From NCBI RefSeq assembly GCF_003966335.1, contig NZ_CP034549.1, positions 1,680,001-1,712,000 on the forward strand: a stretch of 32,000 bases of DNA, written 5' to 3'. How positions within the stretch are numbered: position 1 is the first letter of the stretch; each line of letters starts with the position of its first letter. Under the pieces are notes generated by a model. It searched no databases and was not told the DNA's origin. It saw only the letters and a program-made list of their open reading frames with translations. A program made the position numbers and the translations under genes. This document shows positions 1 through 25,225 of the stretch, piece after piece. This stretch comes from Nonlabens ponticola (lineage in GTDB: Bacteria; Bacteroidota; Bacteroidia; Flavobacteriales; Flavobacteriaceae).

Positions 1-405
1 TCCTTGTTTGCTTGACTTATTAATATTTGAAACATAATCTCCGTAAAATGGAAAGTAACATTTGCGCCATAGTCTATCTTCCTCACCACTATATAATGCA
101 ATTACTTTTTTTGGCAAATACTGGCTTATATTTATTGTGCTAACATCATTAACAAAAGCAGTAGTTTTAGATTTCTTCTTTTCTATTTTGATGGTTTGCT
201 GAGCTAAGTTGGTATATTCTATAAAATAGTCAAACGAGACCGTTTCTGTTTCACGATATAGACTTCTAAAAATATAACTAAGAGCTTCTAACAAATTACT
301 TTTTCCACTCCCGTTATTACCAATTAAGGCAATGATATCTGAGCTGTGTACTAATTTGATTTCTAAATTTTTATAGCCATCAATTGCTAATTTTGTTATC
401 TTCAT
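1..405 (-). CDS. ABC/AAA-type ATPase (SMC/RecF/OLD-like N-terminus). Only the first 135 codons are present; the gene continues beyond the left edge.
   Basis: My own minus-strand translation from the ATG at 405-403 gives MKITKLAIDGYKNLEIKLVHSSDIIALIGNNGSGKSNLLEALSYIFRSLYRETET..., with Walker A GNNGSGKS. The frame stays open to nt 1 (405 nt = 135 codons). The ATG overlaps the TGA of the upstream S-subunit gene (ATGA at 402-405). It is absent from the supplied ORF track because there is no stop codon in the window. Confidence 0.7.
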   Translation of the reverse strand, partial: MKITKLAIDGYKNLEIKLVHSSDIIALIGNNGSGKSNLLEALSYIFRSLYRETETVSFDYFIEYTNLAQQTIKIEKKKSKTTAFVNDVSTINISQYLPKKVIALYSGEEDRLWRKCYFPFYGDYVSNINKSSKQG

Positions 406-1763
406 TTCTGGCTAAATATTTCTTGTTCAAATTTCACTAATGCATCTTTCCTATTGTTTAATGCATTCACTTTTAAAATTTCAATACGTTGGTATATGCT
501 TTGTAGCTTGTTAGCTATTGTATTTTGCAGTTGGATGGATGGTAGAGGAAAAATGATCTTTTTTAGATTGGTAATCCCTAACTCAGTTTGCTTAGTTGAT
601 TGTGCGGATTTAATGCTTTCTACTTGATATTGACCATACTTGCTATTAAATAAATAAGTAAAGAATAAGGGATTTACTTTTGTTTTATCTAATCTCAATA
701 ATAACAAATGACTATCGTACAAAAGATCTTCATTTTCAAAAGTAATTATTGATGCACGACCGATAGTTCCATCACCGGTAGAGTTAATTAATACATCTCC
801 TTCTCTTGTAAAGAACTTTTTGTCAATTTTGTTATACCATTTGTCATTTACTGTTTTTACGTAGCTAAGATCTAATGCATTCCATCTATTACATTTTTGA
901 TTGAGAATAGTGCTATTACCTTCACTATCATATTTTGGACTTTTACCTCTAAATGCATCGTTGAATAATTCTGGTGAAATTGATAAAGAAGTTGTTTTAT
1001 AAATATTAGACTGAAATCTTGAATTATCAATATTATATCCCCATTCGGCTATCTCTGTGTAAGACACAAAGGACAAACCTACCTTTGAAACTTTATTATC
1101 AATTTTATCTAATCCTAAATCTTTAAATAGTATTTTTTCTATTTCATTTTCTAATTGCGTTATTTCATTTTCCTGATTTTCAGCAATATCAAAATGATAA
1201 TTATAATTGTCAATTATTCTCTTTTGCTCATTTATAGATGGTAAGGGTATTTTTATTTCATTGAGTAGTTGATCAGGTTTAATATATTTTCTATTTGTAG
1301 AGCCTGTTACAAATCCGTCCATATATTGATTTACCATTGGACTTTTGAATAGAAGTTGAACATAATCTATTAATACTTTAGATTTGTCTATGGTTGCAAA
1401 AGTCATATTAGAAGATGCTATACCCTTTTCAAAACGATCATCGATTATTCCAAAAGCACCATTTTTAGTGTCCACTTTACACCAAAATAAATGATCTTTA
1501 GGGGCAATTTGATAGGTTCGCATTTTTAAAGTATTGCCTTTTACAGTTCTATTGATAAATGTCCCCTTGCCATATGATCGAACACCTAAAATTCTGTATT
1601 CTTTGTGGTCAATAATTTTGGTTTTTTCAATAATTGGTTTACTCAAAAACTCACCAAATAAAACTAATGGCAATTTTTCTTTGAAAATATTTTGTAGTCT
1701 GAAATGATTTTTCACATCCCAAATTGCAAGTTCTGTATATTCTATAATTGTCAATTCTGCCAT
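402..1763 (-). CDS. hsdS: Restriction-modification specificity (S) subunit, HsdS-like, with two target recognition domains
   Basis: 453 aa. Two variable halves are separated by the conserved central helix region (IKIPLPSINEQKRIIDNYN...ENEITQLENEIEKIL). A matching C-terminal conserved region follows (IFPLPSIQLQNTIANKLQSIYQRIEILKVNA). The start lies 2 nt after the methyltransferase stop. Confidence 0.85.
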   Translation of the reverse strand: MAELTIIEYTELAIWDVKNHFRLQNIFKEKLPLVLFGEFLSKPIIEKTKIIDHKEYRILGVRSYGKGTFINRTVKGNTLKMRTYQIAPKDHLFWCKVDTKNGAFGIIDDRFEKGIASSNMTFATIDKSKVLIDYVQLLFKSPMVNQYMDGFVTGSTNRKYIKPDQLLNEIKIPLPSINEQKRIIDNYNYHFDIAENQENEITQLENEIEKILFKDLGLDKIDNKVSKVGLSFVSYTEIAEWGYNIDNSRFQSNIYKTTSLSISPELFNDAFRGKSPKYDSEGNSTILNQKCNRWNALDLSYVKTVNDKWYNKIDKKFFTREGDVLINSTGDGTIGRASIITFENEDLLYDSHLLLLRLDKTKVNPLFFTYLFNSKYGQYQVESIKSAQSTKQTELGITNLKKIIFPLPSIQLQNTIANKLQSIYQRIEILKVNALNNRKDALVKFEQEIFSQK

Positions 1764-1765
1764 AA

Positions 1766-4042
1766 TTATTTATAAAACAATTCTGGTTCTCTTGCTTCAC
1801 TATTTTCAGATATAGGAATACGATACATTTTATTGTCTTCTACAATTTCATATTCCACCTTATTAATTATATTCCTCCAGAGCTTGTTTGAAATGCGATA
1901 CTCTGTAAAGTCTTTGGCCAGTGGTACTAACTCATTTTCAATTTTTGCACCTGTTGTGCTTATTCCTGCTTTTTCTACTTCAGCTATTGGAATCTCATAA
2001 TTAAAGTCTTCTTTAATTCGAGCTTTAATTTCTAAAGCTATTTGTTGCGTTAGCGTTTTTAGTTCTTGTCGCAATAGTTTCTTTTCATCTGCAGGAAGTG
2101 ATTCCTTTCCTCTCAATGCTAATTTAGATTTGATAGGCGCAACTTGTGGTTGGTACTTAGCTTCAATATCTTTCTTAGCCTTCATCGCAATCTTTTTATA
2201 TGATTTTGATTCTTCCTCTGTAAATTTCTTTAAGAATAGTAAGCTTGTAGTAACCGTAGCACCAGATGCAATAAACACATCTTGAGGAATAGAGGTTATG
2301 AGTAAAATTTTTGCTTTACTTTCAACAAAATCTCTGATTTTTTGAAGGTTAGAGTTGTTTAAGACGCCTTCTGGCAATACAACACCTATTCTACCTCCTG
2401 GTTTAAGTAAGTTCAAGCAACGTTCTAAAAAGAGTACTTCAGTAAGCGTAGTCATTGCACCTGTTTTGTACAAACTCAATAATGGTTTTCCTATGTTATC
2501 ATTAATTTGCTTTAAAGCATTTTCATATTCCTTACCATATCGTTCTTTATACTTTGCGATTCTGCTTGTATCTCTATATTTATCAGCTTCAGTTATCTTT
2601 AAATTCTTTTCAACTCTTGCCCCAAAAGGTGGATTGGTAAGAATTACATCAAAGCGATTATCAAATATTCCATTTACATTTAATAACCCATCGTTATGAT
2701 GCACACCACCGTGACCATCACCGTGCATAATCATATTCATTTTTGCTGTACGACTCATACGAGGATTAGCATCTGTACCAAAAATGCAATCGTAGCTTAA
2801 TACAGTTAATCTACTCTTTGGATTAGTTATATCTAATTCTTGATTGAGTTTATTGAATAATTCATTTACAATTTCATCTACGCCTGCTTTTTTCTTTTCA
2901 GATAGCTTTTCATATTCATCCGTGTAATACAGTTTTTTTATTCTCTCTTTTTCTTGATGAATATCTTCTTCAATTTTAGCTCTTACATACTCAAAAGCTT
3001 TAATTAAAAAACCGCCAGAACCACAACAAGGATCACATATAATCTCACCTTCTTGAGGATCTAATACATCTACCATAAAATCAACTATAGTACGAGGTGT
3101 AAAGAATTGTCCTAATTCACCTCTAAATGTTCTACCTAAGAATTGCTCAAAGGCGATACCCTTAACATCATCAGATGTAGTTGAGAGATTGTACGTTTCC
3201 AGTTCTTTTACTATAGCTTCAAAGCTATTTTCACGTATTCTTATAGTTTCGTTACTATCAAATAGATCATCGTCTTTAAAATCTTCTTTTGTCCTATTGA
3301 ATAATTGTTGATAAAATGGTAGTGCGTTTTTGACTCCCATTTCTTTATTTAATAATTCCTGTCTCTTTCTATTTTCTTCAAATCTTTCTTTTGAAAATAT
3401 CTGCCCTTCATTATTATCTCTTTCGTATCTGATTTTAATAAATAGTATTTTACTTATTTCATCAAATGCAGCTTCTGGTGAGAGTTTGTCATTATTTCTA
3501 ATGATGTTATGACATTTAAAAAGTAGTTTAGAAAATTCATCTCTGGTAAATGCTTTAGTTTGTTTTAATAAAGCTTCTACCTTCTTAGTATTGTTAATAA
3601 TACTGGCATTTGGTATATCTACAACTTCGTCAAGTTCTTTAGGTAGTTTTCCTTTATTAACTCTAAATATTCTTGTCTCTTTGAGATTAGTAGTTACAAA
3701 GAAATCTGCACCTGCCCACGAAGCATAATTATAACCTTGAAAGTAATCTTCCTCACGTATGGTTATCATTTCTGCCTTACATTCAATTACAATTGCTGCG
3801 CTATTATTTTTAAGTTTATCCTCTTTAGATTTCCAGATAACTATATCTGCCATCGCTCTACCTTGACCACGTTGAGAGTTATTGACTTTAACTTCTTGAG
3901 CCATTTGCTCTGTTGAATAACCGTAATTTTCAATCAATCGCTGTATATAGAGCTGTCTTACCTTTTCTTCAGGCTTTAATACCAGCCACTTGCCTAATAG
4001 TGGTGCGTATATTTTATTGTCTTTAATTTCTATTTCTGCCAT
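1766..4042 (-). CDS. N6-adenine DNA methyltransferase (gamma class, HsdM-like) fused to an N-terminal HsdR_N / PD-(D/E)xK-like domain
   Basis: 758 aa. AdoMet motif I is ICDPCCGSGGFL and catalytic motif IV is ILTNPPFG. The N-terminal ~130 aa resemble the type I R-subunit N-terminal nuclease fold, with D66 (MADIVIW) and E87-x-K89 (AIVIECKA). The C-terminal ~150 aa are a coiled-coil-like extension. Confidence 0.85.
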   Translation of the reverse strand: MAEIEIKDNKIYAPLLGKWLVLKPEEKVRQLYIQRLIENYGYSTEQMAQEVKVNNSQRGQGRAMADIVIWKSKEDKLKNNSAAIVIECKAEMITIREEDYFQGYNYASWAGADFFVTTNLKETRIFRVNKGKLPKELDEVVDIPNASIINNTKKVEALLKQTKAFTRDEFSKLLFKCHNIIRNNDKLSPEAAFDEISKILFIKIRYERDNNEGQIFSKERFEENRKRQELLNKEMGVKNALPFYQQLFNRTKEDFKDDDLFDSNETIRIRENSFEAIVKELETYNLSTTSDDVKGIAFEQFLGRTFRGELGQFFTPRTIVDFMVDVLDPQEGEIICDPCCGSGGFLIKAFEYVRAKIEEDIHQEKERIKKLYYTDEYEKLSEKKKAGVDEIVNELFNKLNQELDITNPKSRLTVLSYDCIFGTDANPRMSRTAKMNMIMHGDGHGGVHHNDGLLNVNGIFDNRFDVILTNPPFGARVEKNLKITEADKYRDTSRIAKYKERYGKEYENALKQINDNIGKPLLSLYKTGAMTTLTEVLFLERCLNLLKPGGRIGVVLPEGVLNNSNLQKIRDFVESKAKILLITSIPQDVFIASGATVTTSLLFLKKFTEEESKSYKKIAMKAKKDIEAKYQPQVAPIKSKLALRGKESLPADEKKLLRQELKTLTQQIALEIKARIKEDFNYEIPIAEVEKAGISTTGAKIENELVPLAKDFTEYRISNKLWRNIINKVEYEIVEDNKMYRIPISENSEAREPELFYK

Positions 4043-4103
4043 CTAATTCTTAAGTAAAATTCAATTTATAAAGTTAAAAAACATACTGACTTCTTTAACA
4101 CTT

Positions 4104-4388
4104 TTAGTTGCTTTTCTTGAAAGGTCTATAGTGTAGATCAAGTAAGGTCTCAATATCACTCACTTTGTAGTAGATTTTATTTTCTATTTGTGAGTATGCA
4201 ATGATACCTTTATTACGCCAGTTTTGTGCTGTGCTGGAACTTATATTCATTAGCTGTAAAAAGTCTGCGTTATCTATAAGTTGTGCCTGTAATGTAGTCT
4301 TTTTAATAATAGCTAATTCTGCTGTTAGCTTTTCTAAGCGTTGCTCTATTGCGTTGAGTCTTTCTTTATGTGGGTGCTGTAATTCCAT
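4104..4388 (-). CDS. Small helix-turn-helix DNA-binding protein (excisionase/MerR-like HTH_17) with an N-terminal coiled coil
   Basis: 94 aa. The segment FLQLMNISSSTAQNWRNKGIIAYSQIENKIYYKVSDIETLL matches the HTH_17 pattern typical of Bacteroidota integrative elements. Confidence 0.6.
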   Translation of the reverse strand: MELQHPHKERLNAIEQRLEKLTAELAIIKKTTLQAQLIDNADFLQLMNISSSTAQNWRNKGIIAYSQIENKIYYKVSDIETLLDLHYRPFKKSN

Positions 4389-4443
4389 AGCTTATATTTT
4401 TACCCTTGTTTTAGGGTATATTACAAGTTGTAAAACTTAGTGA

Positions 4444-5337
4444 TTATAGATGGGCTTGTATTTTCGTTTTTAGTTTCTTTATGACCTGTTGATTAAAGGG
4501 ATTTTCTTCAATCGTTTTCAATAGCTTAGAATAGTTTTTACGGTCTAATACATAACTGTGTTTATGATACTTTTTCAAGCCGTTTACGACTTCTTTATCA
4601 TTCATTGCAGCCATTAGTTTTATTTCCTTAGGCTGCAAAGCAGCGTAGGGAATAATAGGTTTCTTTTTAAGCGTTGTATAGATTTCTAATAGGTTCATTA
4701 ACAAATTTGTGTAATTCTCCTTGTTCACTAAATCACGTACTGTATAGATGGGTATGGCGTCCTTCTTTCGAGCATAATAATATTTTGCTTTAGCTTCTAC
4801 CTCAAATCTGAAGTACGGCGCGTTTAATTGCTTTCTGTCATTATTCTTTACCTCATAGGTTTTGTCATAGCCCTTAATATTATAATTTGTTGCTTTATAG
4901 TGTGCTCCATATATTTTTGTGCCGTTGCGCATTACCTGAGGAAACTTACCCTTATAATCTGCCCAGCTTTCAAAAATTGGTTGCGCTACTTCTTGTATTA
5001 CGATGCCGCAGGCAACGTATTTTACAATAGCATCGTAGATGCTGAAAGGGAAGTGGTTATCTAATATTTCTATGGCGTGCTGCGCTTTCGCGAAAGCGAA
5101 CTCCTCATAGTTATTATCCATATAAAACTTATGTAATGAGTTTTTAATAATCAACTTATCGTCTTTGAGTTGCAACCAAAGATTCTTAATAACTGATTTG
5201 TAATACACGATATAACCACGATTGCTGTAATGTGGTGACCACTGTAATCCACACCATTCAAAAGGCTCTGTAGATCTTTGCACAGCCTTATGAGGCAGTT
5301 GTTGTAACTGCTTTTCTATGTGGATGGTGTCGTACAA
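4444..5337 (-). CDS. Hypothetical protein, possibly a rolling-circle replication initiator (Rep_trans / gene II-X like)
   Basis: 297 aa. The motifs NSLHKFYMDNNYEEF and IKGYDKTYEV...YFRFEVEAK recall the xSLxKxxxGxN and YDK...R-x-E patterns of Rep_trans/gpII-like initiators, from memory only. It starts 4 nt after the upstream HTH gene's stop. It contains one copy of the 14-bp palindrome. Confidence 0.4.
   Translation of the reverse strand: MYDTIHIEKQLQQLPHKAVQRSTEPFEWCGLQWSPHYSNRGYIVYYKSVIKNLWLQLKDDKLIIKNSLHKFYMDNNYEEFAFAKAQHAIEILDNHFPFSIYDAIVKYVACGIVIQEVAQPIFESWADYKGKFPQVMRNGTKIYGAHYKATNYNIKGYDKTYEVKNNDRKQLNAPYFRFEVEAKAKYYYARKKDAIPIYTVRDLVNKENYTNLLMNLLEIYTTLKKKPIIPYAALQPKEIKLMAAMNDKEVVNGLKKYHKHSYVLDRKNYSKLLKTIEENPFNQQVIKKLKTKIQAHL
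5083..5098. repeat. Copy of the GCTTTCGCGAAAGC palindrome (16-bp perfect palindrome CGCTTTCGCGAAAGCG) inside the Rep-like island gene
   Basis: Read directly. Encodes EEFAFAKAQH on the minus strand. Confidence 0.95.
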
Positions 5338-5341
5338 CTCA

Positions 5342-5635
5342 CTAACTATTTCTAATGAGGTACTCTGTAGCTTGTGCGTCTATCTCGTCCTTTGTGATCT
5401 GGCGGTTGCGCTGTAGCCACTGGTCTAATTCTGTACGGTTGAAATACAACTTCTTGCCCTGTGGGCAGAAATGTGGTATTTGCTTTTGACTGGTTAATTT
5501 GTACAGGTGTGATGCGCTTATATCTAAATAGGCGGCAGCCTCATTTAGATTTAATACGTCTTTTTTGAGCAGGTTTTGCTCTTGCAACATCGTTTCGATG
5601 TTTGCGAGTTTTTGAAGAATGATTTCTTGTTCCAT
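5342..5635 (-). CDS. Excisionase-family helix-turn-helix (HTH_17) DNA-binding protein
   Basis: 97 aa. LNLNEAAAYLDISASHLYKLTSQKQIPHFCPQGKKLYFNRTELDQWL is a classic HTH_17/AlpA-type motif. Confidence 0.75.
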   Translation of the reverse strand: MEQEIILQKLANIETMLQEQNLLKKDVLNLNEAAAYLDISASHLYKLTSQKQIPHFCPQGKKLYFNRTELDQWLQRNRQITKDEIDAQATEYLIRNS

Positions 5636-5690
5636 CGTAATGTATTTTTATGATTACGTGAACAAAGAAATTGAGATGCTTGAGCGTAGC

Positions 5691-5736
5691 AAAAACATCA
5701 ATGACCGTGTACTGACATAAGTCAGTATAGTCATTG
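5691..5736 (-). terminator. Compound hairpin immediately downstream of the 444-aa gene
   Basis: CAATGAC (5699-5705) pairs with GTCATTG (5730-5736). The inner stem is TACTGAC (5710-5716) with GTCAGTA (5721-5727). A T-run follows on the minus strand (revcomp of aaaaacatc at 5691-5699). Confidence 0.45.
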
Positions 5737-5740
5737 TTTT

Positions 5741-7075
5741 TTATTGCATTTCCTTAAATATTTTGTCTATGATTTCTTTTTCTTTTGGGTTACCAGTGTT
5801 TGCAGTACTCAAATTTGAACTGTTTAATACGGTAGTATTACTACTTAAAAATAACTTTGAATCTGACACATCAACAGATCTAAAACGAGTAAAGTAATCT
5901 TGCATTTTACTAATTATATATCTGAACTGGATATTTTCGCAATTCAAATGAACTTTTATATTTAAAATTGTAATGTCTTTAGCAAGTAATAGTTTATGAA
6001 ATTGCTCGATACTGGTATGATCTGTTTTTAATAGATTTATCCTTAATTGTAAAGATTTAAGTACTGATAATAATTTTATATCATCACCTTTAAAACCAAA
6101 GGTTTTAATAGGTTCTTTGGGCTTGCGAGCTGCTTTAGCAGGTGCAGTCTTTAATTGTGGTGCAATCTCGTTGAAATAGGCTTTCTCGTTTTCCAACCAT
6201 TTTTTGATGGTTTTTATGTATCGCTTTTCTCCTTTGGTATATTCTACGGTTAAGTCTTTTTGCTTAATTCTGTGTGACTCATTGATAAAATCAATTTTGG
6301 TCTTCTCTGCATCTGTAATGTGTCTATCTTTTACTAATTGTACCGTATCAACCGCTGATAGTAAATTATTAGTAAGATTATTTAAGTTGAGTACCAATTC
6401 TGTAGGTGTAACGATTTTAGCCTTAGTTAAGCCTAAGTATCTGTTGGTTCTCGTAGCATTCTTAATAATAGGAAACTGATTAGCGAAGTGCTTCTTAAGC
6501 TGTTCGTAAAATGGCAATTCAAATGGGAATGCTTTCAACCATTTGCTATATATACCAAAGAGTAAATTGAGATTTGTTTTCTCTTTAGCAGGTTCAGCAT
6601 TCTGTAATTCCTTAAAGTAGTTTAATAATGCTTTGCGCTTGTGGTTGGGAATATCAACATCCTTGTTTTTTAAAAACAGCTCTACTAATTCTATGTAGAT
6701 ATGTGAACCAATAGCAGGTGTTCCCATACTCCAAGCACAAAATTCAAAATACTCTGTAATGTCCTCATACCAATCGTCATTATTAATGACCTCTAAAACT
6801 TTAAAATCAGTATACTGTACCGCACTTAAAATCCATATTGGAATATTACCATAGATAGCTTCTTTATTAAAATTAAACTTTTTAAAAAATTCTCTATGAT
6901 TATCGCAGCAATTAGGAAAGCGATCTAAATAATCAGTTAATAATTTATAATTGTGTTTGTGGTTATCGCAACAATTGGGAAAATCTTCTGGTAATTCATA
7001 ACCGTCAGGTTTAGGAATTTCAAAAGGATATTGAATAAAGTCCTTAGATTCTATTTCTATAAAAGGTTTTTCCAT
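5741..7075 (-). CDS. Hypothetical protein with no recognisable family. It has a duplicated FPNCCDNH motif near the N-terminus.
   Basis: 444-aa ORF starting 4 nt after the integrase stop. FPNCCDNH is encoded twice (nt 6959-6982 and 6896-6919), 21 codons apart. Confidence 0.6.
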   Translation of the reverse strand: MEKPFIEIESKDFIQYPFEIPKPDGYELPEDFPNCCDNHKHNYKLLTDYLDRFPNCCDNHREFFKKFNFNKEAIYGNIPIWILSAVQYTDFKVLEVINNDDWYEDITEYFEFCAWSMGTPAIGSHIYIELVELFLKNKDVDIPNHKRKALLNYFKELQNAEPAKEKTNLNLLFGIYSKWLKAFPFELPFYEQLKKHFANQFPIIKNATRTNRYLGLTKAKIVTPTELVLNLNNLTNNLLSAVDTVQLVKDRHITDAEKTKIDFINESHRIKQKDLTVEYTKGEKRYIKTIKKWLENEKAYFNEIAPQLKTAPAKAARKPKEPIKTFGFKGDDIKLLSVLKSLQLRINLLKTDHTSIEQFHKLLLAKDITILNIKVHLNCENIQFRYIISKMQDYFTRFRSVDVSDSKLFLSSNTTVLNSSNLSTANTGNPKEKEIIDKIFKEMQ

Positions 7076-7079
7076 AACT

Positions 7080-8186
7080 CTATAAGTCTAATTGAATACG
7101 GTTAGCGGCTTCCATTTTCTTTTGGTCTATAACTTTTGCATAAATCTGCGTTGTCTTCAATTCTTTATGACCTAAAAGCTTTGATACCGTGTAAATATCT
7201 GTACCTAACGTTAATTGTAAGGTCGCATAGGTATGGCGAGCACAGTGAAACGTTATCGTTTTACTGATACCAGCTTTCATCATCCATTGTTGTAATTTGA
7301 GATTTGTCCAGGCACTATAATGTAACCCTTTAAACACGGTTTCATCATTTTCACCTTCTTCACCTAATAAATTTCTTGATTGCTCTGATATGTTTAGTGT
7401 TTCAGAACCTTTAGTTTTCTTCTGTCTGAATCTAATGTAGTGACCATTTTCTTTAGAATATTGCATTTCTGACCATACTAATTTTTCAATATCGCTCCAT
7501 CTTAAACCAGTAAGACAACTAAAAATGAATGCTTTTTTAAGTTCTGGAAGTTCACATTCTACCTTGACGATTGCTTGCAATTCGTCATAGGTTAGAAACT
7601 CTCTTTGCGGATCACCTTGTTTGAATCCTTTTACTTGTTCTGCTGGATTAAGTCTTAAAATACCATCCTTTACGGCTTGTTTAAGCGCAGCATTAAACTT
7701 GCCGAAGTATGAATACTTTGTATTCAAGGAAAGTTCTTTATTTGCTCTTCCTATTGCTTTTTTGTCTAAGTACTCTTTAAACTCTTCAACAAACTTTTTA
7801 TTGATTTGCTTAAAAGAAATACCCATCGGTTGGAAAGCTTTCATATGCTTAATAAGACTTAGCCAATTACCATAATTTCCCTTACTACTGCTACGTTTTT
7901 CTGCAAGTACTTCTAAATAACTTATAAAGCTACCTTTCATTTTTTCCTTATCCTGAAAGTCATATAAACCGCTCTGAATGGCAACGTGTTTTTTTGCTCT
8001 AATACTTTCTGCAAGTTCTAATGATGCTTTATTTTCATCTCGCTGAGCTTTTGTGAGCTTTCCTTGTTCTGGTTCAGGATGTAAATACAGTTTCAAATAC
8101 TCGTAACTGCGATTTCCATTTTCATAGTAATCGAGGTAAAGGCTTATCTTATTTCCTTTCTTGCGTTGTCTTAAGGTAACTTTCAT
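7080..8186 (-). CDS. int: Tyrosine site-specific recombinase / integrase (Bacteroidota type with an N-terminal arm-binding domain)
   Basis: 368 aa. Catalytic signature: LTGLRWSDI (Arg), HCARHTYAT (His-x-x-Arg) and LLGHKELKTTQIYAKV (His ... Tyr nucleophile). Confidence 0.9.
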   Translation of the reverse strand: MKVTLRQRKKGNKISLYLDYYENGNRSYEYLKLYLHPEPEQGKLTKAQRDENKASLELAESIRAKKHVAIQSGLYDFQDKEKMKGSFISYLEVLAEKRSSSKGNYGNWLSLIKHMKAFQPMGISFKQINKKFVEEFKEYLDKKAIGRANKELSLNTKYSYFGKFNAALKQAVKDGILRLNPAEQVKGFKQGDPQREFLTYDELQAIVKVECELPELKKAFIFSCLTGLRWSDIEKLVWSEMQYSKENGHYIRFRQKKTKGSETLNISEQSRNLLGEEGENDETVFKGLHYSAWTNLKLQQWMMKAGISKTITFHCARHTYATLQLTLGTDIYTVSKLLGHKELKTTQIYAKVIDQKKMEAANRIQLDL

Positions 8187-8197
8187 CTGGTACGGCT

Positions 8198-8557
8198 TTA
8201 GTTAAATAAGGATTCTATTTGGTATCGGGCAACAATATGTTTTCTGCCAAACGGGACAGCTTTAAGCTGGCCTCGCTTTATCATTCTTTGAATGGTCCAT
8301 CTACTTACTCCAATGAGTTGTGAAGCTTCCGTAATGCTTAAAAAGTCTTTTTGATTTATTGCGGTTGTGCTTGAAGGAATAGCAACCTCTGGTTGCATTT
8401 CTTCTTTTAGAGTTGCTTGAACTTTTTCAGCACGCTTGCGTGCCTTGTAAGCGTACTTAGCGCATTTGCATCCACAGTACTTGGTTACTGTAGTTCGGGC
8501 AACAAAAGCGTTACCACAATACTGGCATTTTTTAGGAATATGTAAGTTGCTGCTCAT
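8198..8557 (-). CDS. Zn-ribbon plus HTH_17 excisionase-like DNA-binding protein. The start is moved to the internal Met37 of the track ORF.
   Basis: CQYCGNAF...YCGCKC is a Cys cluster, followed by LSITEASQLIGVSRWTIQRMIKRGQLKAVPFGRKHIV (HTH_17). The 36 codons upstream (8558-8665) coincide with a phased non-coding-looking repeat array and have odd composition. The stop lies 11 nt before the integrase start. Confidence 0.6.
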   Translation of the reverse strand: MSSNLHIPKKCQYCGNAFVARTTVTKYCGCKCAKYAYKARKRAEKVQATLKEEMQPEVAIPSSTTAINQKDFLSITEASQLIGVSRWTIQRMIKRGQLKAVPFGRKHIVARYQIESLFN

Positions 8558-8560
8558 AAA

Positions 8561-8710
8561 TGGTGCGTTATGTAGCGAAATGGTGCAACGTGGGGCAATA
8601 TGGTGCATCATTTCTCCCTTGATTGTTGCCATTGGATTTGGGCAACAAATCACAATAGTGGGCAACAGATAGGAAACAAATTTATCTTATAAACAACAAA
8701 AGGGCAACAA
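8561..8710. repeat. Iteron-like array of short direct repeats, TGG(T/G)GCA / GGGCAACA, with 20-bp phasing
   Basis: TGGTGC occurs at 8561, 8581 and 8601. TGGGGCAAT is at 8591. GGGCAACA occurs at 8640, 8660 and 8702. An inverted GGCAACAATC is at 8621-8630. Two further GGGCAACA copies lie inside the adjacent CDS at 8227 and 8497. Confidence 0.6.
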
Positions 8711-8775
8711 AAAAGAGAAGTAGATATTAAATAATATCAACAATAACAAGCAGTTACGATAAAAGAGAAAGAGGA

Positions 8776-10212
8776 TTACTTCCCGATACAAAACTGCGAG
8801 AAAATATTACTCAGTAATTCATCATTAGTAATCTCGCCGGTAATCATTCCTATATGCTCCGCAGTAGCTTTAATGTCAATGGCAAGGAATTCACTTGAGA
8901 TTTCATTGGCAATACCTTGCTGGACTTCCATGAGCGACGCGTACGCTTTTTGTAGTGCGTCGTAGTGTCTTGCATTGCTCACGATACTATCATCACCACT
9001 TAAGGCGCCACTTTGAAAGCTGGCGACAAGTGCGTCTTTTAATTCCTCAACACCAGTTCCTGATTTTGCACTTAGCGAAATGACAATTGTCTCTGGAGAT
9101 CGCTTTTTTAGTTGTTTGGTAATCTCTGCATGCTCAAGGCCTGTGATTTCGTCTAGCTTATTCAAGACAACTACAACAGGTTTATCAGGAAATTTCTCTT
9201 TCATGATCTGGATGCGCATTAAACAATGCACAATCCGCGGATTGGTATTTAGTTGCGTTGCGTCAAGCAGGTAAAGCACTAGTCTTGATTGTTCTGCTTT
9301 TGCATAGCTGCGCTGGATTCCCATCGATTCAATAGTATCTGTGGTCTCACGAATTCCTGCGGTATCGATAAATCTAAAGCGTATGCCGTCAATATTAATC
9401 TCGTCCTCGATACTATCGCGCGTGGTTCCAGCAATGTCGCTTACGATGGCCTTTTCCTCATTTAGTAGGGCATTGAGTAAGGTGGATTTACCCACATTAG
9501 GCTCGCCCACAATGGCAATAGGAATTCCTGATTTGAGCACATTTCCCAGTGCAAAAGAATCTATAAGCTTACGCAGTGTTTGTTGGCTTTCAGCTAGTAA
9601 TCTTTTTAAGTCATCACGATTGGCAAACTCTACATCTTCCTCGCTAAAATCTAGTTCCAGCTCAATCATACTGGAAAAATTGAGTAGCTGTGCGCGCAAT
9701 TCCTGCAACTCGCTGGAAAAGCCGCCACGCATTTGTTGCAGGGCAATCTGGTGCGCGGTCTCACTTTCACTGGCGATGAGGTCTGCAACGGCTTCGGCTT
9801 GTGAGAGATCCATCTTGGCATTTAAGAATGCCTGCAGCGTGAATTCACCAGCTTTTGCTGCGCGAGAACCATTTTGCAGGCACAGTGCAATTATTTCTTG
9901 TTGTATGTAAATGGAACCGTGACATGAAATTTCCACGACGTGTTCGCCCGTATAGGACCGTGGCGCATCAAACCTTGTCAGTAGTACCTGATCTACGATT
10001 CTGTTGCCATCGTACACGCGTCCCAAAGTCACTGTATTGGGATGTAGTCTTTCAAATAGCTTTAATGATGGTCGTGAGTTAGCTTTCGCGAAAGCGGGAA
10101 CAAAAACAGCCGCTGCAATCTCATGGGCATCTGGTCCAGACAAACGTATCACTGCAATGGCGCCTGAACCAGCTGGTGTGGCGAGTGCGACTATGGTATC
10201 ATTTTTAAACAT
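8776..10212 (-). CDS. mnmE: tRNA modification GTPase MnmE (TrmE)
   Basis: N-terminal MFKNDTIVALATPAGSGAIAVIRLSG. G-domain motifs GEPNVGKSTLLN, DTAG and NKLD. C-terminal CIGK motif. The start is set at Met18 of the track ORF (ATG at 10212). Confidence 0.9.
   Translation of the reverse strand: MFKNDTIVALATPAGSGAIAVIRLSGPDAHEIAAAVFVPAFAKANSRPSLKLFERLHPNTVTLGRVYDGNRIVDQVLLTRFDAPRSYTGEHVVEISCHGSIYIQQEIIALCLQNGSRAAKAGEFTLQAFLNAKMDLSQAEAVADLIASESETAHQIALQQMRGGFSSELQELRAQLLNFSSMIELELDFSEEDVEFANRDDLKRLLAESQQTLRKLIDSFALGNVLKSGIPIAIVGEPNVGKSTLLNALLNEEKAIVSDIAGTTRDSIEDEINIDGIRFRFIDTAGIRETTDTIESMGIQRSYAKAEQSRLVLYLLDATQLNTNPRIVHCLMRIQIMKEKFPDKPVVVVLNKLDEITGLEHAEITKQLKKRSPETIVISLSAKSGTGVEELKDALVASFQSGALSGDDSIVSNARHYDALQKAYASLMEVQQGIANEISSEFLAIDIKATAEHIGMITGEITNDELLSNIFSQFCIGK
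10082..10095. repeat. Copy of the GCTTTCGCGAAAGC palindrome inside mnmE
   Basis: Read directly. Encodes VPAFAKANS on the minus strand. The 22 nt at 10074-10095 are identical to 25052-25073. Confidence 0.95.
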
Positions 10213-10353
10213 ACCCAAAGGTACAAATGATGACGCGCACCACATAATGGCGTGCCTCGACAATTGGATTTTAATACAATGAGATTAAGGTCAGCTTTTG
10301 AGACTATTGGTGATATTTTCTTACCTTATCGATGTAATAAAAACCTATCCATC

Positions 10354-13103: not shown

Positions 13104-15473
13104 TTACTTTACCAGCAATCTTAGGCTTGCTGTAGCTTGATCGCTGTTTACAGTGACAAGGTAGATTCCTGTACTCAGTGAAGATACATCTAGCGTCGCT
13201 ATGCCAGAGTTATCAAAAGATACCGCATTAGCTACGATAGTTTGACCCAAGGTATTTGAAACTGTAACTAGACTTTCAATACCTGACAACGAGTTTGCTT
13301 TTATAGTAACGATATCAGTACTTGCTGGATTAGGATAGATACTGAGGTTTGCTGCTAGCTCTACATCGTCATTTGAGGCAGTGCTTGACTCAAATTCAAG
13401 CGAGAATCTATCTGCTGCATCAGCATTTGTATCGGTGACCTCAAATGATACTGTGTTTTCACCATTCTCAAGTATTGTTCTAGTATTAGCAAATCGATCA
13501 TTTAAGATAGCGACCATTCCACCAGGTAAGTTGCTTACATCTATTGAAAATACATAGGAGTCATTATCATAACCTCTTAGGTCTAGATCTAGAACCTCAT
13601 TATTTTCTGGTAATGCTCTGTGTTCAACGCTAACAAGCTGACCATCAATAGAACGCGATAGATTTTCATCTGGATTGAAGATTTTTAATCCGTCGCGTAG
13701 ATTCAAAACATTAGTATCATCAAATACGATAGATAGCTCATCATAAGTGATGACATCACTATTACCGCTGGTCAATTTCATGATAATCGATGTGGTCTGG
13801 TCATCACTAAACGTTGTGAGATTGGTGTTATTAGTACTGACATCGCCATAATCAAAACCTAAGGAAGCGGCACCATCTGCAGCTGTTGTTACAAAAAACG
13901 ATTGTCCTGGTTGAATGAATTGTAATGGATTTACTACACCAGAAACATCTACGGTTTCATAGGCACCTCTAGTAGATGCGTTGGCGTTCCATACGTAGAT
14001 AAAGTTAGGATTGACATTGCTTTTAGTCAACAATTCATAATCAACAACAGCCTGATAAGGATTACCTACAAGACTGAAGTTTCCTGCCGTTTCATTCAGA
14101 TTATCAGCTGTAAAAGCATCGAGTTCAGGAGTTCCAGTTACTGGTAAAGTCACATTACTGTTAGGTGCTGGCGCATCAGTATCGCTCAAATCATAATTGC
14201 GATCGCCACGTACAAATATTCTAAACGGCTCACCTACGGCAAGTCCACGTACATCAGTATTGTCAACAGCATTCCATGCTTCACTTTGATTACTAGCTGT
14301 ATTGTCAAATGTAAATAGAGAAGGTGCACCGCTTATCGTTGCATCAAATCCATTAGATCCATCAGTCGAACCAGTAATTTGAGTACCTATTCCAGCATCG
14401 CTGTTGCCATTGTCTTGCCAGTTTTGGTAAATGCTACCTTGACTAGCAACTGGTGACGATACAAATCTGAAAGCCCTACGGTTATTATCTGCCGCTGGAA
14501 TAAATCGCTCTACCGTTATATTTCCAGTGACGGCAGCGCTTGATGTAGCAACCAATTGTGCTGTTCCAGCTGCATCGCTATCAAAAATGACCGTACCGTT
14601 ATTATTCAATGCGCCGTTTAAGTTTAATACCTGTTCTCCAGCTATTGAGAGTGATCCATTTGATTCTACGGTAATTGAATTGTCAACGGTAATGTCAACA
14701 TCGCCAGTAACATTATTTTTAATGATTATTTTCTCACTCGATATGGGAATTATACCATTTGTCCAGGTAGCTGTCGAGCTCCAATTACCATCGGCAATAG
14801 TTCTAGACGCTCCCGTAAAATTCAAGTTAGAAGTAAAGGTCACATCATCTGTACCTGGATTATTTGCAGGTAATCCATTACCATAACCTTCATTGCTTCT
14901 AAAAACGCCATTACCGCCAAAACCGTCCATGTAGGTAATCAAGAAATCAAAGCTGTTGGAATTAGGAATGCCTAAATCTTCCCATTTGAAAGAGAATGTG
15001 AAAGAAGCATCAGTATTGCTTGAAGGATTTCCAACCCCAACGACAAATGGGAATTCTGCATTTTCAACAAGTGTCCATAATCCACCAAAGCTCGTATTAA
15101 TCGCAATAGCATAATCTGCTTCAAATCCAGCGGGAAAATTTACTACAGAGCGAGAAGCACCGTCAAATCCACCGAAACCAGCAATAGAACGCCTTAATTT
15201 ATCACCCGAGCTTGGATCATTAAAATTTGCGGTAGAAGTAAAACCACCTGTTTTAGAATCAATGTAAATGACAAGCTCGTTATTAAAGTTATCGTTGGTT
15301 CCTCTGGTGAAAGTTCCAGTAACCGTCGTTCCATCATCAGTCAATTGCAGGCTACTTTGGCCAACTGGACCACCAAAACCACTATTACCATTACCAGAAT
15401 AAGAACTTTGAGCACCGCTCAAGAATCCAACTGCAATGGCGATGAATAAAGTCAAAAAGTAATGTTTCTTCAT
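13104..15473 (-). CDS. Large secreted protein with a T9SS (Por) C-terminal sorting domain; function unknown
   Basis: 789 aa. Signal peptide MKKHYFLTLFIAIAVGFLSGAQS. The C-terminus LSIYPNPASTDIVTIKAN...GIYLVTVNSDQATASLRLLVK matches the type A T9SS sorting domain pattern. Composition is Thr/Ser/Asn/Gly-rich and beta-rich. Confidence 0.8.
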   Translation of the reverse strand: MKKHYFLTLFIAIAVGFLSGAQSSYSGNGNSGFGGPVGQSSLQLTDDGTTVTGTFTRGTNDNFNNELVIYIDSKTGGFTSTANFNDPSSGDKLRRSIAGFGGFDGASRSVVNFPAGFEADYAIAINTSFGGLWTLVENAEFPFVVGVGNPSSNTDASFTFSFKWEDLGIPNSNSFDFLITYMDGFGGNGVFRSNEGYGNGLPANNPGTDDVTFTSNLNFTGASRTIADGNWSSTATWTNGIIPISSEKIIIKNNVTGDVDITVDNSITVESNGSLSIAGEQVLNLNGALNNNGTVIFDSDAAGTAQLVATSSAAVTGNITVERFIPAADNNRRAFRFVSSPVASQGSIYQNWQDNGNSDAGIGTQITGSTDGSNGFDATISGAPSLFTFDNTASNQSEAWNAVDNTDVRGLAVGEPFRIFVRGDRNYDLSDTDAPAPNSNVTLPVTGTPELDAFTADNLNETAGNFSLVGNPYQAVVDYELLTKSNVNPNFIYVWNANASTRGAYETVDVSGVVNPLQFIQPGQSFFVTTAADGAASLGFDYGDVSTNNTNLTTFSDDQTTSIIMKLTSGNSDVITYDELSIVFDDTNVLNLRDGLKIFNPDENLSRSIDGQLVSVEHRALPENNEVLDLDLRGYDNDSYVFSIDVSNLPGGMVAILNDRFANTRTILENGENTVSFEVTDTNADAADRFSLEFESSTASNDDVELAANLSIYPNPASTDIVTIKANSLSGIESLVTVSNTLGQTIVANAVSFDNSGIATLDVSSLSTGIYLVTVNSDQATASLRLLVK

Positions 15474-19241: not shown

Positions 19242-21119
19242 TTGAAAAATTTTGAAGCCTTAGGGCTCTCACAACCGTTACTTGACGGTCTCGCTGAAAT
19301 GGGATTTGAAACCCCAACTGAGATTCAGCAACAGTCCATTCCCATTTTATTGCAACATGATGGAGACTTTATAGGTCTCGCGCAAACCGGTACGGGAAAA
19401 ACTGCTGCTTTTGGTTTACCCTTATTGGATCTTATAGATATTAATTCTCGTGATACGCAGGCATTAATCCTAGCGCCCACGAGAGAACTTGCTCAACAAA
19501 TTTGTGGGCAAATGGAGCAAATGTCCCAGAAGATGGGCAAGCTTAATGTGGTACCAGTTTTTGGTGGTGCTAGTATCATGAACCAGATACGTGACATACG
19601 TCGTGGCGCACAAATTGTGGTTGCCACGCCTGGTCGTCTCATGGATCTTATGAAGCGTAAGGAAGTCAAACTGGATTCCCTTAAATACATGGTCCTAGAT
19701 GAGGCCGACGAGATGCTCAACATGGGCTTCAAGGAAGATATTGACTTTATCCTTTCAAAAAGTGATACCGGTAGAAATATCTGGCTCTTTAGTGCTACCA
19801 TGGCACGTGAGATCAAGCGTATTGTTGATACTTACATGGTGCAGCCAGAAGAGGTGCGCATCAATAGAGAAAATATTGTAAACACAAATATTGAGCACCA
19901 GTCAGTACAGCTCAAGGCGTCTGATAAAATTGAAGCCTTGAGACGTTACCTTGACTATAATCAAGACATGTTCGGTGTGGTTTTTTGTCGCACAAAACGT
20001 GATACACAAAAAGTAGCAGACGAGCTTAATAATAATGGTTATGCAACTGAAGCCTTGCACGGCGACATGTCACAAGCGCAGCGTGATGCTGCGATGAAGA
20101 GATTCCGTAATAAGAATTTGAAGTTGCTTATTGCGACTGATGTTGCTGCTCGTGGTATCGATGTAGATGATATCACACACGTGATTCACTTTGCCTTGCC
20201 CGACGACCCAGAATTCTATACGCACCGCTCTGGTCGTACCGCACGTGCTGGTAAGAAAGGAGTATCACTTGCATTGATTACCAAAGGTGATAACCGAAAA
20301 CTCAAATACATCGCTAGCAAGCTAGGTATTGAATTTGCTAAAGGTGAGGTGCCTGCTCTAGATGCGATTACTGAAAAGCGCATCGCACGCTGGTCAGAAA
20401 ATTTAAAGAAGCAAGAAATCAATCCTAAGATTAGCGATGAGTTGATGAATGATGTGGTTGCTCAATTTGAGGAATTATCTAAGGAAGATCTCATTGCTAG
20501 ATTGCTTACTAAGGAATACAACAGTATTTACAAGCGCAATTCCATCAAGGATGTAAACGACAGGAGTAAAGCTCGTGACGACGATCGCGGTGGTCGCAGA
20601 GAGCGCGGCCGCAAGAATGATAGAGGTAAGGAAGAAGGAATGAAGACTTTCTTCGTCAATCTAGGTCGCAAGGACAACATCAATAAAGGAGCCTTGCTAG
20701 GTTATATTTGTGATGTTACTGGTATTTCAGGTAATGATGTAGGTCGTATCGTGCTTGACGGTGCTCATTCTTTTATGGATGTAAAAGAAGAGGTTGCTGG
20801 CCAGATGCTCAAACTCAATGGTACCAATAGAGATGGTCGTGAATTAAGAGTTGACGAACACCACGGTAAAGTAGTAGAGACTAGAGATAGAGGTGGCCGC
20901 AGTGGTGGTGGTTATAAAGGCAAGAGAGATTCTGGAGGTGGCTTTAAAGGTCGCAGATCAGACCGCGACGATTCATCATCAAGATCGGGTGGTTTTAAGG
21001 GCCGTAGTAGAAGTAATGATGATCGATCTTCTAGATCCTCATCTGATGGTGGATCTAAACCAAAAGGCGGCAAGAAGGGCTCAGGACGATCAAAGTTCTT
21101 CGGTAAGAAATGGGATTAG
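19242..21119 (+). CDS. deaD: DEAD-box ATP-dependent RNA helicase (DeaD/CsdA-like) with a DbpA-type RNA-binding domain and an Arg/Gly/Ser-rich tail
   Basis: Q-motif region FEALGL...PTEIQ, then AQTGTGKT, VLDEADEM, SAT and HRSGRTARAG. The C-terminus contains GGYKGKR/GGFKGRR/GGFKGRS repeats. The TTG start is the only in-frame start close to the conserved N-terminus. Confidence 0.9.
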   Translation: MKNFEALGLSQPLLDGLAEMGFETPTEIQQQSIPILLQHDGDFIGLAQTGTGKTAAFGLPLLDLIDINSRDTQALILAPTRELAQQICGQMEQMSQKMGKLNVVPVFGGASIMNQIRDIRRGAQIVVATPGRLMDLMKRKEVKLDSLKYMVLDEADEMLNMGFKEDIDFILSKSDTGRNIWLFSATMAREIKRIVDTYMVQPEEVRINRENIVNTNIEHQSVQLKASDKIEALRRYLDYNQDMFGVVFCRTKRDTQKVADELNNNGYATEALHGDMSQAQRDAAMKRFRNKNLKLLIATDVAARGIDVDDITHVIHFALPDDPEFYTHRSGRTARAGKKGVSLALITKGDNRKLKYIASKLGIEFAKGEVPALDAITEKRIARWSENLKKQEINPKISDELMNDVVAQFEELSKEDLIARLLTKEYNSIYKRNSIKDVNDRSKARDDDRGGRRERGRKNDRGKEEGMKTFFVNLGRKDNINKGALLGYICDVTGISGNDVGRIVLDGAHSFMDVKEEVAGQMLKLNGTNRDGRELRVDEHHGKVVETRDRGGRSGGGYKGKRDSGGGFKGRRSDRDDSSSRSGGFKGRSRSNDDRSSRSSSDGGSKPKGGKKGSGRSKFFGKKWD

Positions 21120-25112: not shown

Positions 25113-25130
25113 GTAAGCCTTAATTTTTTG

Positions 25131-25138
25131 CAAAAATA
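25131..25138 (-). promoter_or_regulatory. Bacteroidota -7 box within TATTTTTGCAAAA (minus strand) for the nuclease gene
   Basis: The minus strand reads GGTATTTTTGCAAAAAATT. The G of the box lies 18 nt upstream of the ATG at 25112. Confidence 0.45.
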
Positions 25139-25225
25139 CCGCATTCCAGGGGCACTTCACAATATTAAATTGTTAAGTCTGCACCTGCTGCGTTCGTGCA
25201 TACAACGATAATGCCACAGGATGCG

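Follow-up and report, generated by a model that had tools for sequence, protein, structure and literature searches.

Type IIB restriction-modification (RM) enzymes cut both sides of a bipartite site and need no ATP for it; BsaXI, one of them, has an (RM)2S composition, in which the N-terminal nuclease of the RM subunit uses residues E73, D90, E105 and K107, as proven by mutation (PMC11997821). Nucleases of the OLD family have been sorted into classes 1–4 and an archaeal class 5, none of them defined by an RM and specificity (S) gene neighbourhood, and ten clades of the OLD tree are uncharacterised (PMC10568477, PMC12796447). OLD-ABC modules lying beside BREX and other methylation-based systems have been interpreted as back-up effectors, and Ocr, an anti-restriction protein, is sensed by PARIS (PMC12839542). 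In the methylation-associated defence system (MADS) of Pseudomonas aeruginosa, deletion of mad3 leaves methylation in place while defence is lost, and MAD6–8 are mandatory in its authors' detection model; deletion of mad5, the S gene, is tolerated when mad2 or mad3 is removed along with it but is otherwise lethal, from which it follows that the methyltransferase (M) and the ATPase of MADS act together. PrrC, which accompanies EcoprrI, is a precedent for a guard of a restriction system, and RloA and RloB occur in type I loci of Campylobacter. Here we describe a locus at the left end of a 32,000-nucleotide stretch of the Nonlabens ponticola genome (Flavobacteriaceae; RefSeq assembly GCF_003966335.1, contig NZ_CP034549.1, positions 1,680,001 to 1,712,000 of the forward strand), hereafter the window. 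Three close-packed minus-strand genes encode a nuclease-methyltransferase fusion (M, or RM subunit), an S subunit and an ATP-binding cassette (ABC) ATPase. We propose that they may form a two-layer defence, in which a self-sufficient RM+S enzyme is linked to an OLD-type guard or back-up nuclease, and we give this reading an even chance of being right.

A type IIB-like RM subunit is the best reading of M

The three genes, which a preliminary description of this DNA had already delimited, were read directly in the sequence at the same coordinates (Table 1). M and S are separated by 2 nt (1764–1765), and S is joined to the ATPase gene by an ATGA at 402–405, in which the start codon of the ATPase overlaps the stop codon of S (404–402). 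They are not chance open reading frames (ORFs), since strong full-length family matches fall on long ORFs in DNA of 30% G+C.

M is 100% identical to P0137, annotated as 'N-6 DNA methylase [Nonlabens ponticola]', and matches the PADLOC methyltransferase model MTase_I (PDLC03018) over its full length with 1333.6 bits. Pfam recognises N6_Mtase (3.5e-38) and, at residues 24–144, HSDR_N_2 (2.8e-24); the latter match, together with a conserved putative catalytic tetrad, bears out the N-terminal PD-(D/E)xK domain claimed in the preliminary description. Within and next to this tetrad, D66, E87, C88 and K89 are invariant across 42 homologues, those from loci without an ATPase included, while E50 is at least 90% conserved in the same set and invariant in a 40-sequence alignment (A5). 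E50, D66, E87 and K89 follow one another in the order, and with similar spacing, of E73, D90, E105 and K107 in BsaXI. The methyltransferase motif residues are kept in all 80 aligned sequences save for one residue (88%), and motif I precedes NPPF, the order that had earlier been termed gamma class.

In a search of PDB sequences, residues 166–621 of M aligned with residues 209–636 of RM.BsaXI, the longest stretch of any match, and HsdM proteins were also returned. Foldseek run on a predicted model of M placed three RM.BsaXI entries first (5e-19 to 3e-17, about 860–900 columns; 5e-19 and 896 columns for the best), followed by HsdM proteins (5.6e-12, about 460 columns). A HMMER search with the nuclease domain against 1.8 billion representatives yielded fusions of about 670–990 amino acids (aa), along with many short entries and several proteins in which the domain is C-terminal; it gave no clear HsdR relatives and was uninformative on the origin of the domain. 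From sequence and predicted structure, the best reading of M is that of an RM subunit in a type IIB-like enzyme akin to BsaXI and BcgI, and RM+S plausibly constitute a complete, self-sufficient restriction-modification enzyme. Gene calling divides RM into two ORFs in two metagenome contigs (L085:3342-5615 and L086:671-2944; L numbers denote related loci), with the nuclease and the N-terminal part of the methyltransferase in one and the C-terminal part in the next. The split may be genuine or may reflect a frameshift or a pseudogene; in both contigs DUF4268 is carried by the OLD gene.

The S subunit matches Pfam Methylase_S in two stretches and the PADLOC model Specificity_I (PDLC03148) over its full length (1.7e-82). 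Its first target recognition domain (TRD1, window 1752–1230) cannot be aligned with that of a close relative, L093 (L093:11813-12329), while the remainder of the gene (1229–395) is 90% identical at the DNA level. TRD1 is the sole part of S that differs between the two, a clean swap that implies a recent change of half-site specificity.

The ATPase gene very probably encodes an OLD-type ATPase-nuclease

Hidden Markov model searches of the operon with Pfam and PADLOC assigned AAA_15, SMC_N and AAA_21 to the 135-aa ATPase fragment present in the window, with the PtuA1 model PDLC00293 as the best PADLOC match (1.1e-23) and the Walker A motif GNNGSGKS at window positions 298–321. No NCBIfam model was matched by the ATPase above its cut-off, and a search with the 135-aa fragment returned short fragments only. 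Over all 135 aa the fragment is 100% identical to P0022, a 722-aa 'AAA family ATPase [Nonlabens ponticola]', which is very probably the full-length product of the truncated gene.

P0022 consists of an ABC ATPase part (residues ~1–345; AAA_21, SMC_N and AAA_15), a TOPRIM domain (~375–500), a long helical region and a DUF5655 domain (614–721) that matches the C-terminal half of the PADLOC candidate PDC-S18. In an alignment of 46 relatives the catalytic motifs of the ATPase are invariant, namely G29..K35-S36 (Walker A), S267-E268-G269 (signature), D293-E294 (Walker B) and H325 (H-loop). The same is true of the TOPRIM residues E383-G384, D387 and D441, with D443 at least 90% conserved; the Pfam model OLD-like_TOPRIM scores below its cut-off on P0022 (17.2 vs 23.2). 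The AlphaFold (AF2) model of P0022 is confident, with a mean predicted local distance difference test score (pLDDT) of 86, and its best fold match in the PDB is the class 1 OLD protein of Thermus scotoductus (TsOLD, 6p74; 1.4e-11, 531 columns), with complexes of GajA, PtuA and AriA following among the first ten matches. With its TOPRIM domain and its TsOLD-like fold, the full-length protein agrees with the preliminary assignment of the ATPase to the kind found in OLD, Septu and PARIS systems. More than 1,471 clusters at E < 1e-20 make this a large family, in which the C-terminal domain varies among DUF5655, DUF4357 and DUF4268.

RM+S and ATPase-nuclease modules are linked in both directions

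Seen from the M side, linkage was counted in 65 loci with at least 1.5 kb of sequence after S. An ABC ATPase lies within two genes of S in 51 of them (~78%), either as PtuA with PtuB-HNH, which is genuine Septu (30 loci; PtuB models 124–224 bits), as a fused ABC-TOPRIM protein (14 loci) or in some other arrangement (7 loci); the other 14 loci have no ABC ATPase after S. S and the ATPase gene mostly overlap, the distance between them running from -26 to +26 nt. The gene order, the conservation of which had been raised as a question in the preliminary description, recurs in other genomes and across phyla.

Seen from the ATPase side, eight contexts were sampled: Mariniflexile, Mucilaginibacter, Psychrobacter, two Joint Genome Institute (JGI) metagenome contigs, Chryseobacterium, a Sphingobacterium-type metagenome-assembled genome and a Flammeovirga megaplasmid. 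Although these span three phyla and ATPase identities of 30–79%, an HSDR_N_2-methyltransferase and S lie upstream in all eight, accompanied in most by a small helix-turn-helix (HTH) gene. The RM+S pair is directly adjacent in seven, and two small ORFs intervene in the second JGI contig. On the Flammeovirga megaplasmid, where the ATPase is only 30% identical, the RefSeq names at the locus are generic. The OLD-type ATPase is therefore found almost only behind this RM+S pair, and the linkage holds in both directions.

The ATPase module behind RM+S is exchanged between loci

The M proteins of loci L001 and L002 are 95% identical, yet the fused OLD type follows in one and PtuA/PtuB in the other. 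A still closer case is L093, whose M is 98% identical to that of the window and which occupies the same mnmE site, but whose cargo after S consists of a 493-aa PtuA-type ATPase, a 211-aa partner and an Mrr-like nuclease. At the DNA level the whole M gene (4047–1753) is 95% identical between the window and L093; homology stops at 4047 on the upstream side of the RM gene and 10 nt inside the ATPase gene at the other end, and P0022 is only 28% identical to the L093 PtuA. Across 20 loci, median identity was 0.69 for M vs 0.38 for the ATPase, and the two correlated weakly (Spearman 0.21).

Modules are also stacked. Tandem ABC modules, a fused OLD protein and PtuA/PtuB in either order, stand behind a single RM+S pair in L020:14343-19290, L035:13614-17990, L087:7001-11300 and L088:7001-11293. 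Where the slot after S holds no ABC ATPase, or further downstream of one, we found accessory genes such as are associated with restriction loci, namely DUF488, Fic/DOC, HATPase_c-DUF4325, FokI/Mrr-like nuclease, RhuM, Schlafen and GIY-YIG-DUF4357 genes. On these comparisons the ATPase is an exchangeable cassette and not a co-evolving subunit, and RM+S acts like a conserved platform on which both the specificity and the effector cassette downstream vary. The nuclease with a FokI-cleavage/Mrr-like domain follows PtuAB in L018:15731-17077, L033 and L093:15274-16248, the fused ABC-TOPRIM ATPase in L032, and S directly in L040:8045-9397; it is possibly a further effector of the same cassette.

HsdR is missing from the window and rare in related loci

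As had been claimed from the sequence, no HsdR-like gene was found among the adjacent island genes (4104–8665) or the other window ORFs scanned, and ResIII was matched in the window only by a DEAD/DbpA RNA helicase (19242–21119). Since the window ends inside the ATPase gene, the survey beyond that point was made in relatives, namely 80 related loci with M identities of 65–85%, mostly from Bacteroidota. Only 3 of their 54 neighbouring proteins of 690–1250 aa contain a ResIII domain. The three Psychrobacter genes stand by themselves: polA is their immediate upstream neighbour, and no defence gene could be recognised downstream. That HsdR is missing is explained if RM+S, as is plausible, is a complete restriction-modification enzyme with a nuclease of its own.

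In the closest islands (L001:15742-19253 and L081:10169-12674), a conserved 107-aa ORF without a family match comes after the OLD gene and is succeeded by a prokaryotic Argonaute (pAgo) gene for a Piwi-domain protein of ~700 aa, after which both loci continue into host genes; a RhuM gene lies between the 107-aa ORF and pAgo in L001. A related pAgo follows a 601-aa ORF in L026:17141-19219. Genes for the 107-aa ORF and pAgo may also lie just left of the window.

A two-layer defence and its alternatives

In the proposed two-layer defence, RM and S would form a type IIB-like (RM)2S enzyme with the architecture of BsaXI/BcgI. S would read a bipartite target, the methyltransferase domain would place N6-methyladenine (m6A) on host sites, and the N-terminal PD-(D/E)xK domain would cut unmethylated DNA, presumably on both sides of the target, so that an HsdR translocase would be unneeded. 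The second layer would be the translationally coupled 722-aa OLD-family protein, an exchangeable ATPase-nuclease dependent on the RM+S platform. It would most likely be a guard or back-up nuclease, released when the RM layer is inhibited or overrun, as in PrrC/EcoprrI or PARIS; both this role and its trigger are suggested by analogy with those systems. Because the ATPase is exchangeable, we favour a two-layer defence over a single new machine. The preliminary description had seen in the locus a composite module and no textbook type I system; this composite, non-textbook character stands. More tentatively, and with the balance tilted against it, the RM+S-linked OLD proteins could make up a distinct, unnamed OLD class wired to a type IIB-like complex, in which they would be either a guard that senses when the RM layer is inhibited or the ATP-dependent effector in a minimal MADS-like system of three genes, with the ABC head as a common adaptor and TOPRIM and HNH as interchangeable warheads.

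Several points weigh against the two-layer defence. A profile of the nuclease domain found no real match among PDB sequences, which made a fold comparison necessary, and the M model used in that comparison is mediocre (mean pLDDT 68.7, template modelling score (TM) 0.34), so that the BsaXI match owes its weight mostly to its rank and to the length of the alignment. That the RM subunit restricts DNA is suggested by homology only. Characterised type IIB operons have no ATPase partner, whereas in the window family an ABC ATPase-nuclease stands behind S in ~78% of loci. In addition, the dependence of the OLD-type ATPase on RM+S in all eight contexts would be equally expected of an integrated effector, and in MADS, where these architectures recur in MAD2, MAD3 and MAD5, genetics shows that defence needs the ATPase. 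The last two points lend themselves to the main rival, an integrated minimal MADS-like machine, in which RM+S would methylate self and recognise unmethylated sites, and the OLD protein, recruited or licensed by RM-S, would be the restriction effector or a required part of it. Residues 7–374 of M indeed match NCBIfam MAD2 with 306 bits, and S matches MAD5. The ATPase, whose entire ABC domain (residues 2–343) matches PADLOC mad3 with 91 bits, is moreover found only behind RM+S in the sampled contexts and is translationally coupled to S. We nevertheless consider such a machine unlikely. The NCBIfam scores lie far under the curated cut-offs (306 vs 720 for MAD2, 51 vs 400 for MAD5 and, for MAD3, 19 vs 420 with the window fragment and 33–43 with full-length relatives), and nothing comparable to MAD6–8 was seen downstream in related loci, on whose genes no MAD6–8 profile was run. 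Different ATPase types are swapped behind M proteins that are 95–98% identical, with the breakpoint at the gene boundary; the 14 loci without an ATPase still keep the nuclease tetrad; and PtuAB, the commonest occupant of the slot after S, reportedly functions alone elsewhere.

The same mobility of the modules could instead be taken as plain co-location, in which the OLD protein would be an autonomous class-1-like single-gene defence nuclease sharing a promoter with an unrelated RM+S, and the post-S site a hotspot for defence cargo. Many unrelated accessory genes occupy that slot, modules are swapped and tandemly stacked, M and ATPase divergence correlate weakly, and architecture and fold are those of a class 1 OLD protein. 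An autonomous gene should, however, occur elsewhere too, and not with this RM+S in every ATPase-side context; class 1 OLD genes are defined as solitary, with variable neighbourhoods (PMC10568477, PMC12796447), and here overlap of start and stop codons with S is the rule. Taken together, these observations make mere co-location quite improbable in our view. Still further down the scale, and highly improbable, is an ordinary type I system with its hsdR just past the left window edge and the ATPase as an RloA-like hitch-hiker. The window does end inside the ATPase gene, and both JGI and PADLOC label the relatives 'type I M protein', but the standard hsdR directly downstream, which the preliminary description had named as the finding that would reduce the locus to this, fails to appear in relatives, as the rarity of ResIII among their large neighbours attests. 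The closest islands go on with the 107-aa ORF and pAgo and then host genes, the Psychrobacter genes stand alone, M has a nuclease domain where HsdM proteins have their usual N-terminal part, and an RloB-like partner was not detected.

The operon is cargo of a low-G+C integrative island

G+C content is 29–34% over window positions 1–8000 compared with ~39–45% beyond, and the operon is the cargo of this low-G+C island. The genes of the island backbone (Table 1) are also found in L081, and its insertion site at mnmE is also used in L087 and L093. Different integrase-bearing islands with this RM+S family thus sit at the 3' end of mnmE (trmE), at window 8666–10263, L087:1-3011 and L093:122-2791, and the common site suggests a hotspot for integration that is shared within Flavobacteriia; the window yielded no tRNA gene. 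In L081 the gene that takes the position of the 297-aa backbone ORF is annotated BT4734-like_N and is followed by a primase-type gene (PriCT_2/DUF3987) that is missing from the window island. An Xre-type controller gene (HTH_3/HTH_31), frequent directly upstream in relatives, is absent upstream of the window RM gene, and a sigma-70 promoter scan is uninformative for a Bacteroidota genome. Elsewhere in the window, and unrelated to the operon, are genes for two large host proteins with type IX secretion C-terminal sorting domains (13104–15473 and 23136–25160), one of which has an Endonuclease I domain and would be a secreted nuclease.

Table 1 Features of the operon and of the adjoining island, in window coordinates
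Feature	Position	Strand	Basis and remarks
RM subunit gene	1766..4042	-	ORF, 758 aa; nuclease, helical connector, N6-adenine methyltransferase and C-terminal helical region
RM nuclease domain, residues 1-165	3548..4042	-	HSDR_N_2; PD-(D/E)xK
Putative nuclease tetrad	E50 3893-3895, D66 3845-3847, E87 3782-3784, K89 3776-3778	-	Conservation
Methyltransferase core	2624..3034	-	Motif I DPCCGSGGF 3008-3034 (residue 337); motif IV NPPF 2624-2635 (residue 470)
S subunit gene	402..1763	-	ORF, 453 aa, two TRDs
ABC ATPase gene, first 135 codons	1..405	-	ATG at 405-403; runs past window edge
Intergenic region 5' of RM gene, 61 nt	4043..4103	-	Presumed promoter region, sequence read
Island backbone	4104..8665	-	Pfam; adjoins mnmE (8776-10263)
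HTH_17 gene	4104-4388	-	Pfam; island backbone
297-aa ORF	4444-5337	-	Island backbone; no Pfam or NCBIfam match
HTH_17/excisionase-like gene	5342-5635	-	Pfam; island backbone
DUF6617 gene	5741-7075	-	Pfam; island backbone
Tyrosine integrase gene	7080-8186	-	Pfam; island backbone
HTH_17 gene	8198-8665	-	Pfam; island backbone

Novelty and significance

The pairing of RM+S with an ABC ATPase-nuclease is widespread and is unnamed in current phage-defence catalogues. Its parts are of known kinds, a type IIB-like RM enzyme and an OLD or Septu module, and the cassette is not categorically new; a description of it was not found in the literature, in a search that did not cover Krishnan et al. 2020 on ABC ATPases, where such neighbourhoods are possibly discussed. 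If our reading is right, thousands of genes that bear no more than the names 'N-6 DNA methylase', 'restriction endonuclease subunit S' and 'AAA family ATPase' would belong to one recurrent defence cassette that ranges over Bacteroidota, Campylobacterota and Proteobacteria. It would offer a compact natural system in which to study how OLD and Septu modules are triggered and whether restriction systems are guarded by them against phage anti-restriction proteins, as well as a relative of MADS with a simpler make-up. A context-defined clade would be added to the OLD classification, and the programmable RM+S family, the specificity of which is changed via its TRDs, could be mined for type IIB-like reagents.

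Comparison with known systems

With classical type I systems the locus shares an HsdM-type methyltransferase and a two-TRD HsdS, but HsdR is lacking in the part of the island inside the window and, with the few ResIII matches noted above, in relatives. Nor does it look like an RloA/RloB hitch-hiker: partner proteins of the ATPases, which are PtuB-HNH, gave no RloB Pfam match, and hsdR is lacking to the extent just stated. Gabija (class 2), retrons (class 3) and PARIS (class 4) were set aside in turn, as related loci have no GajB helicase, no reverse transcriptase with non-coding RNA and no split AriA/AriB, and ATPase and TOPRIM are fused. Septu comes nearer, in that the N-terminal part of the ATPase best matches PtuA1 and that genuine PtuA with PtuB-HNH is the commonest module in related loci; P0022 itself, however, matches PtuA1 only over residues 1–197, has a fused TOPRIM domain, and its closest loci (L001 and L081) have no PtuB.

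The guard modules PrrC/EcoprrI, PARIS AriA/AriB and RloA/RloB likewise place an ABC-type ATPase and a nuclease in or near a methylation-based restriction locus, and are read as a second line set off by anti-restriction factors. They differ in that an HsdR-containing host system is absent here, that the nuclease is a TOPRIM domain and not an anticodon nuclease as in PrrC, and that the protein is fused and not split as in PARIS. Class 1 OLD proteins (P2 Old, TsOLD) have the same succession of ABC ATPase and TOPRIM in one chain, with the catalytic motifs kept. Their genes are solitary, whereas the window clade is fixed behind RM+S and has an extra C-terminal DUF5655, DUF4357 or DUF4268 domain; with the same RM+S pair upstream in all eight contexts, it lacks the solitary, variable setting of class 1.

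MADS likewise combines, in one operon, an HTH gene, a MAD2-like methyltransferase with the same N-terminal region, a MAD3-like OLD-type ABC ATPase and a MAD5-like S, but differs in gene order, in the scores that remain below the cut-offs, and in that the window ATPase carries its own TOPRIM nuclease. As for type IIB enzymes, the window RM is only 18% identical to BsaXI; the likeness to BsaXI and BcgI lies in the architecture, with an RM subunit made up of an N-terminal PD-(D/E)xK domain, a helical connector and an N6-adenine methyltransferase in which motif I stands before NPPF, no HsdR, a separate type-I-like S with alternating target recognition domains and conserved regions (TRD1-CR1-TRD2-CR2), and the E...D...ExK tetrad.

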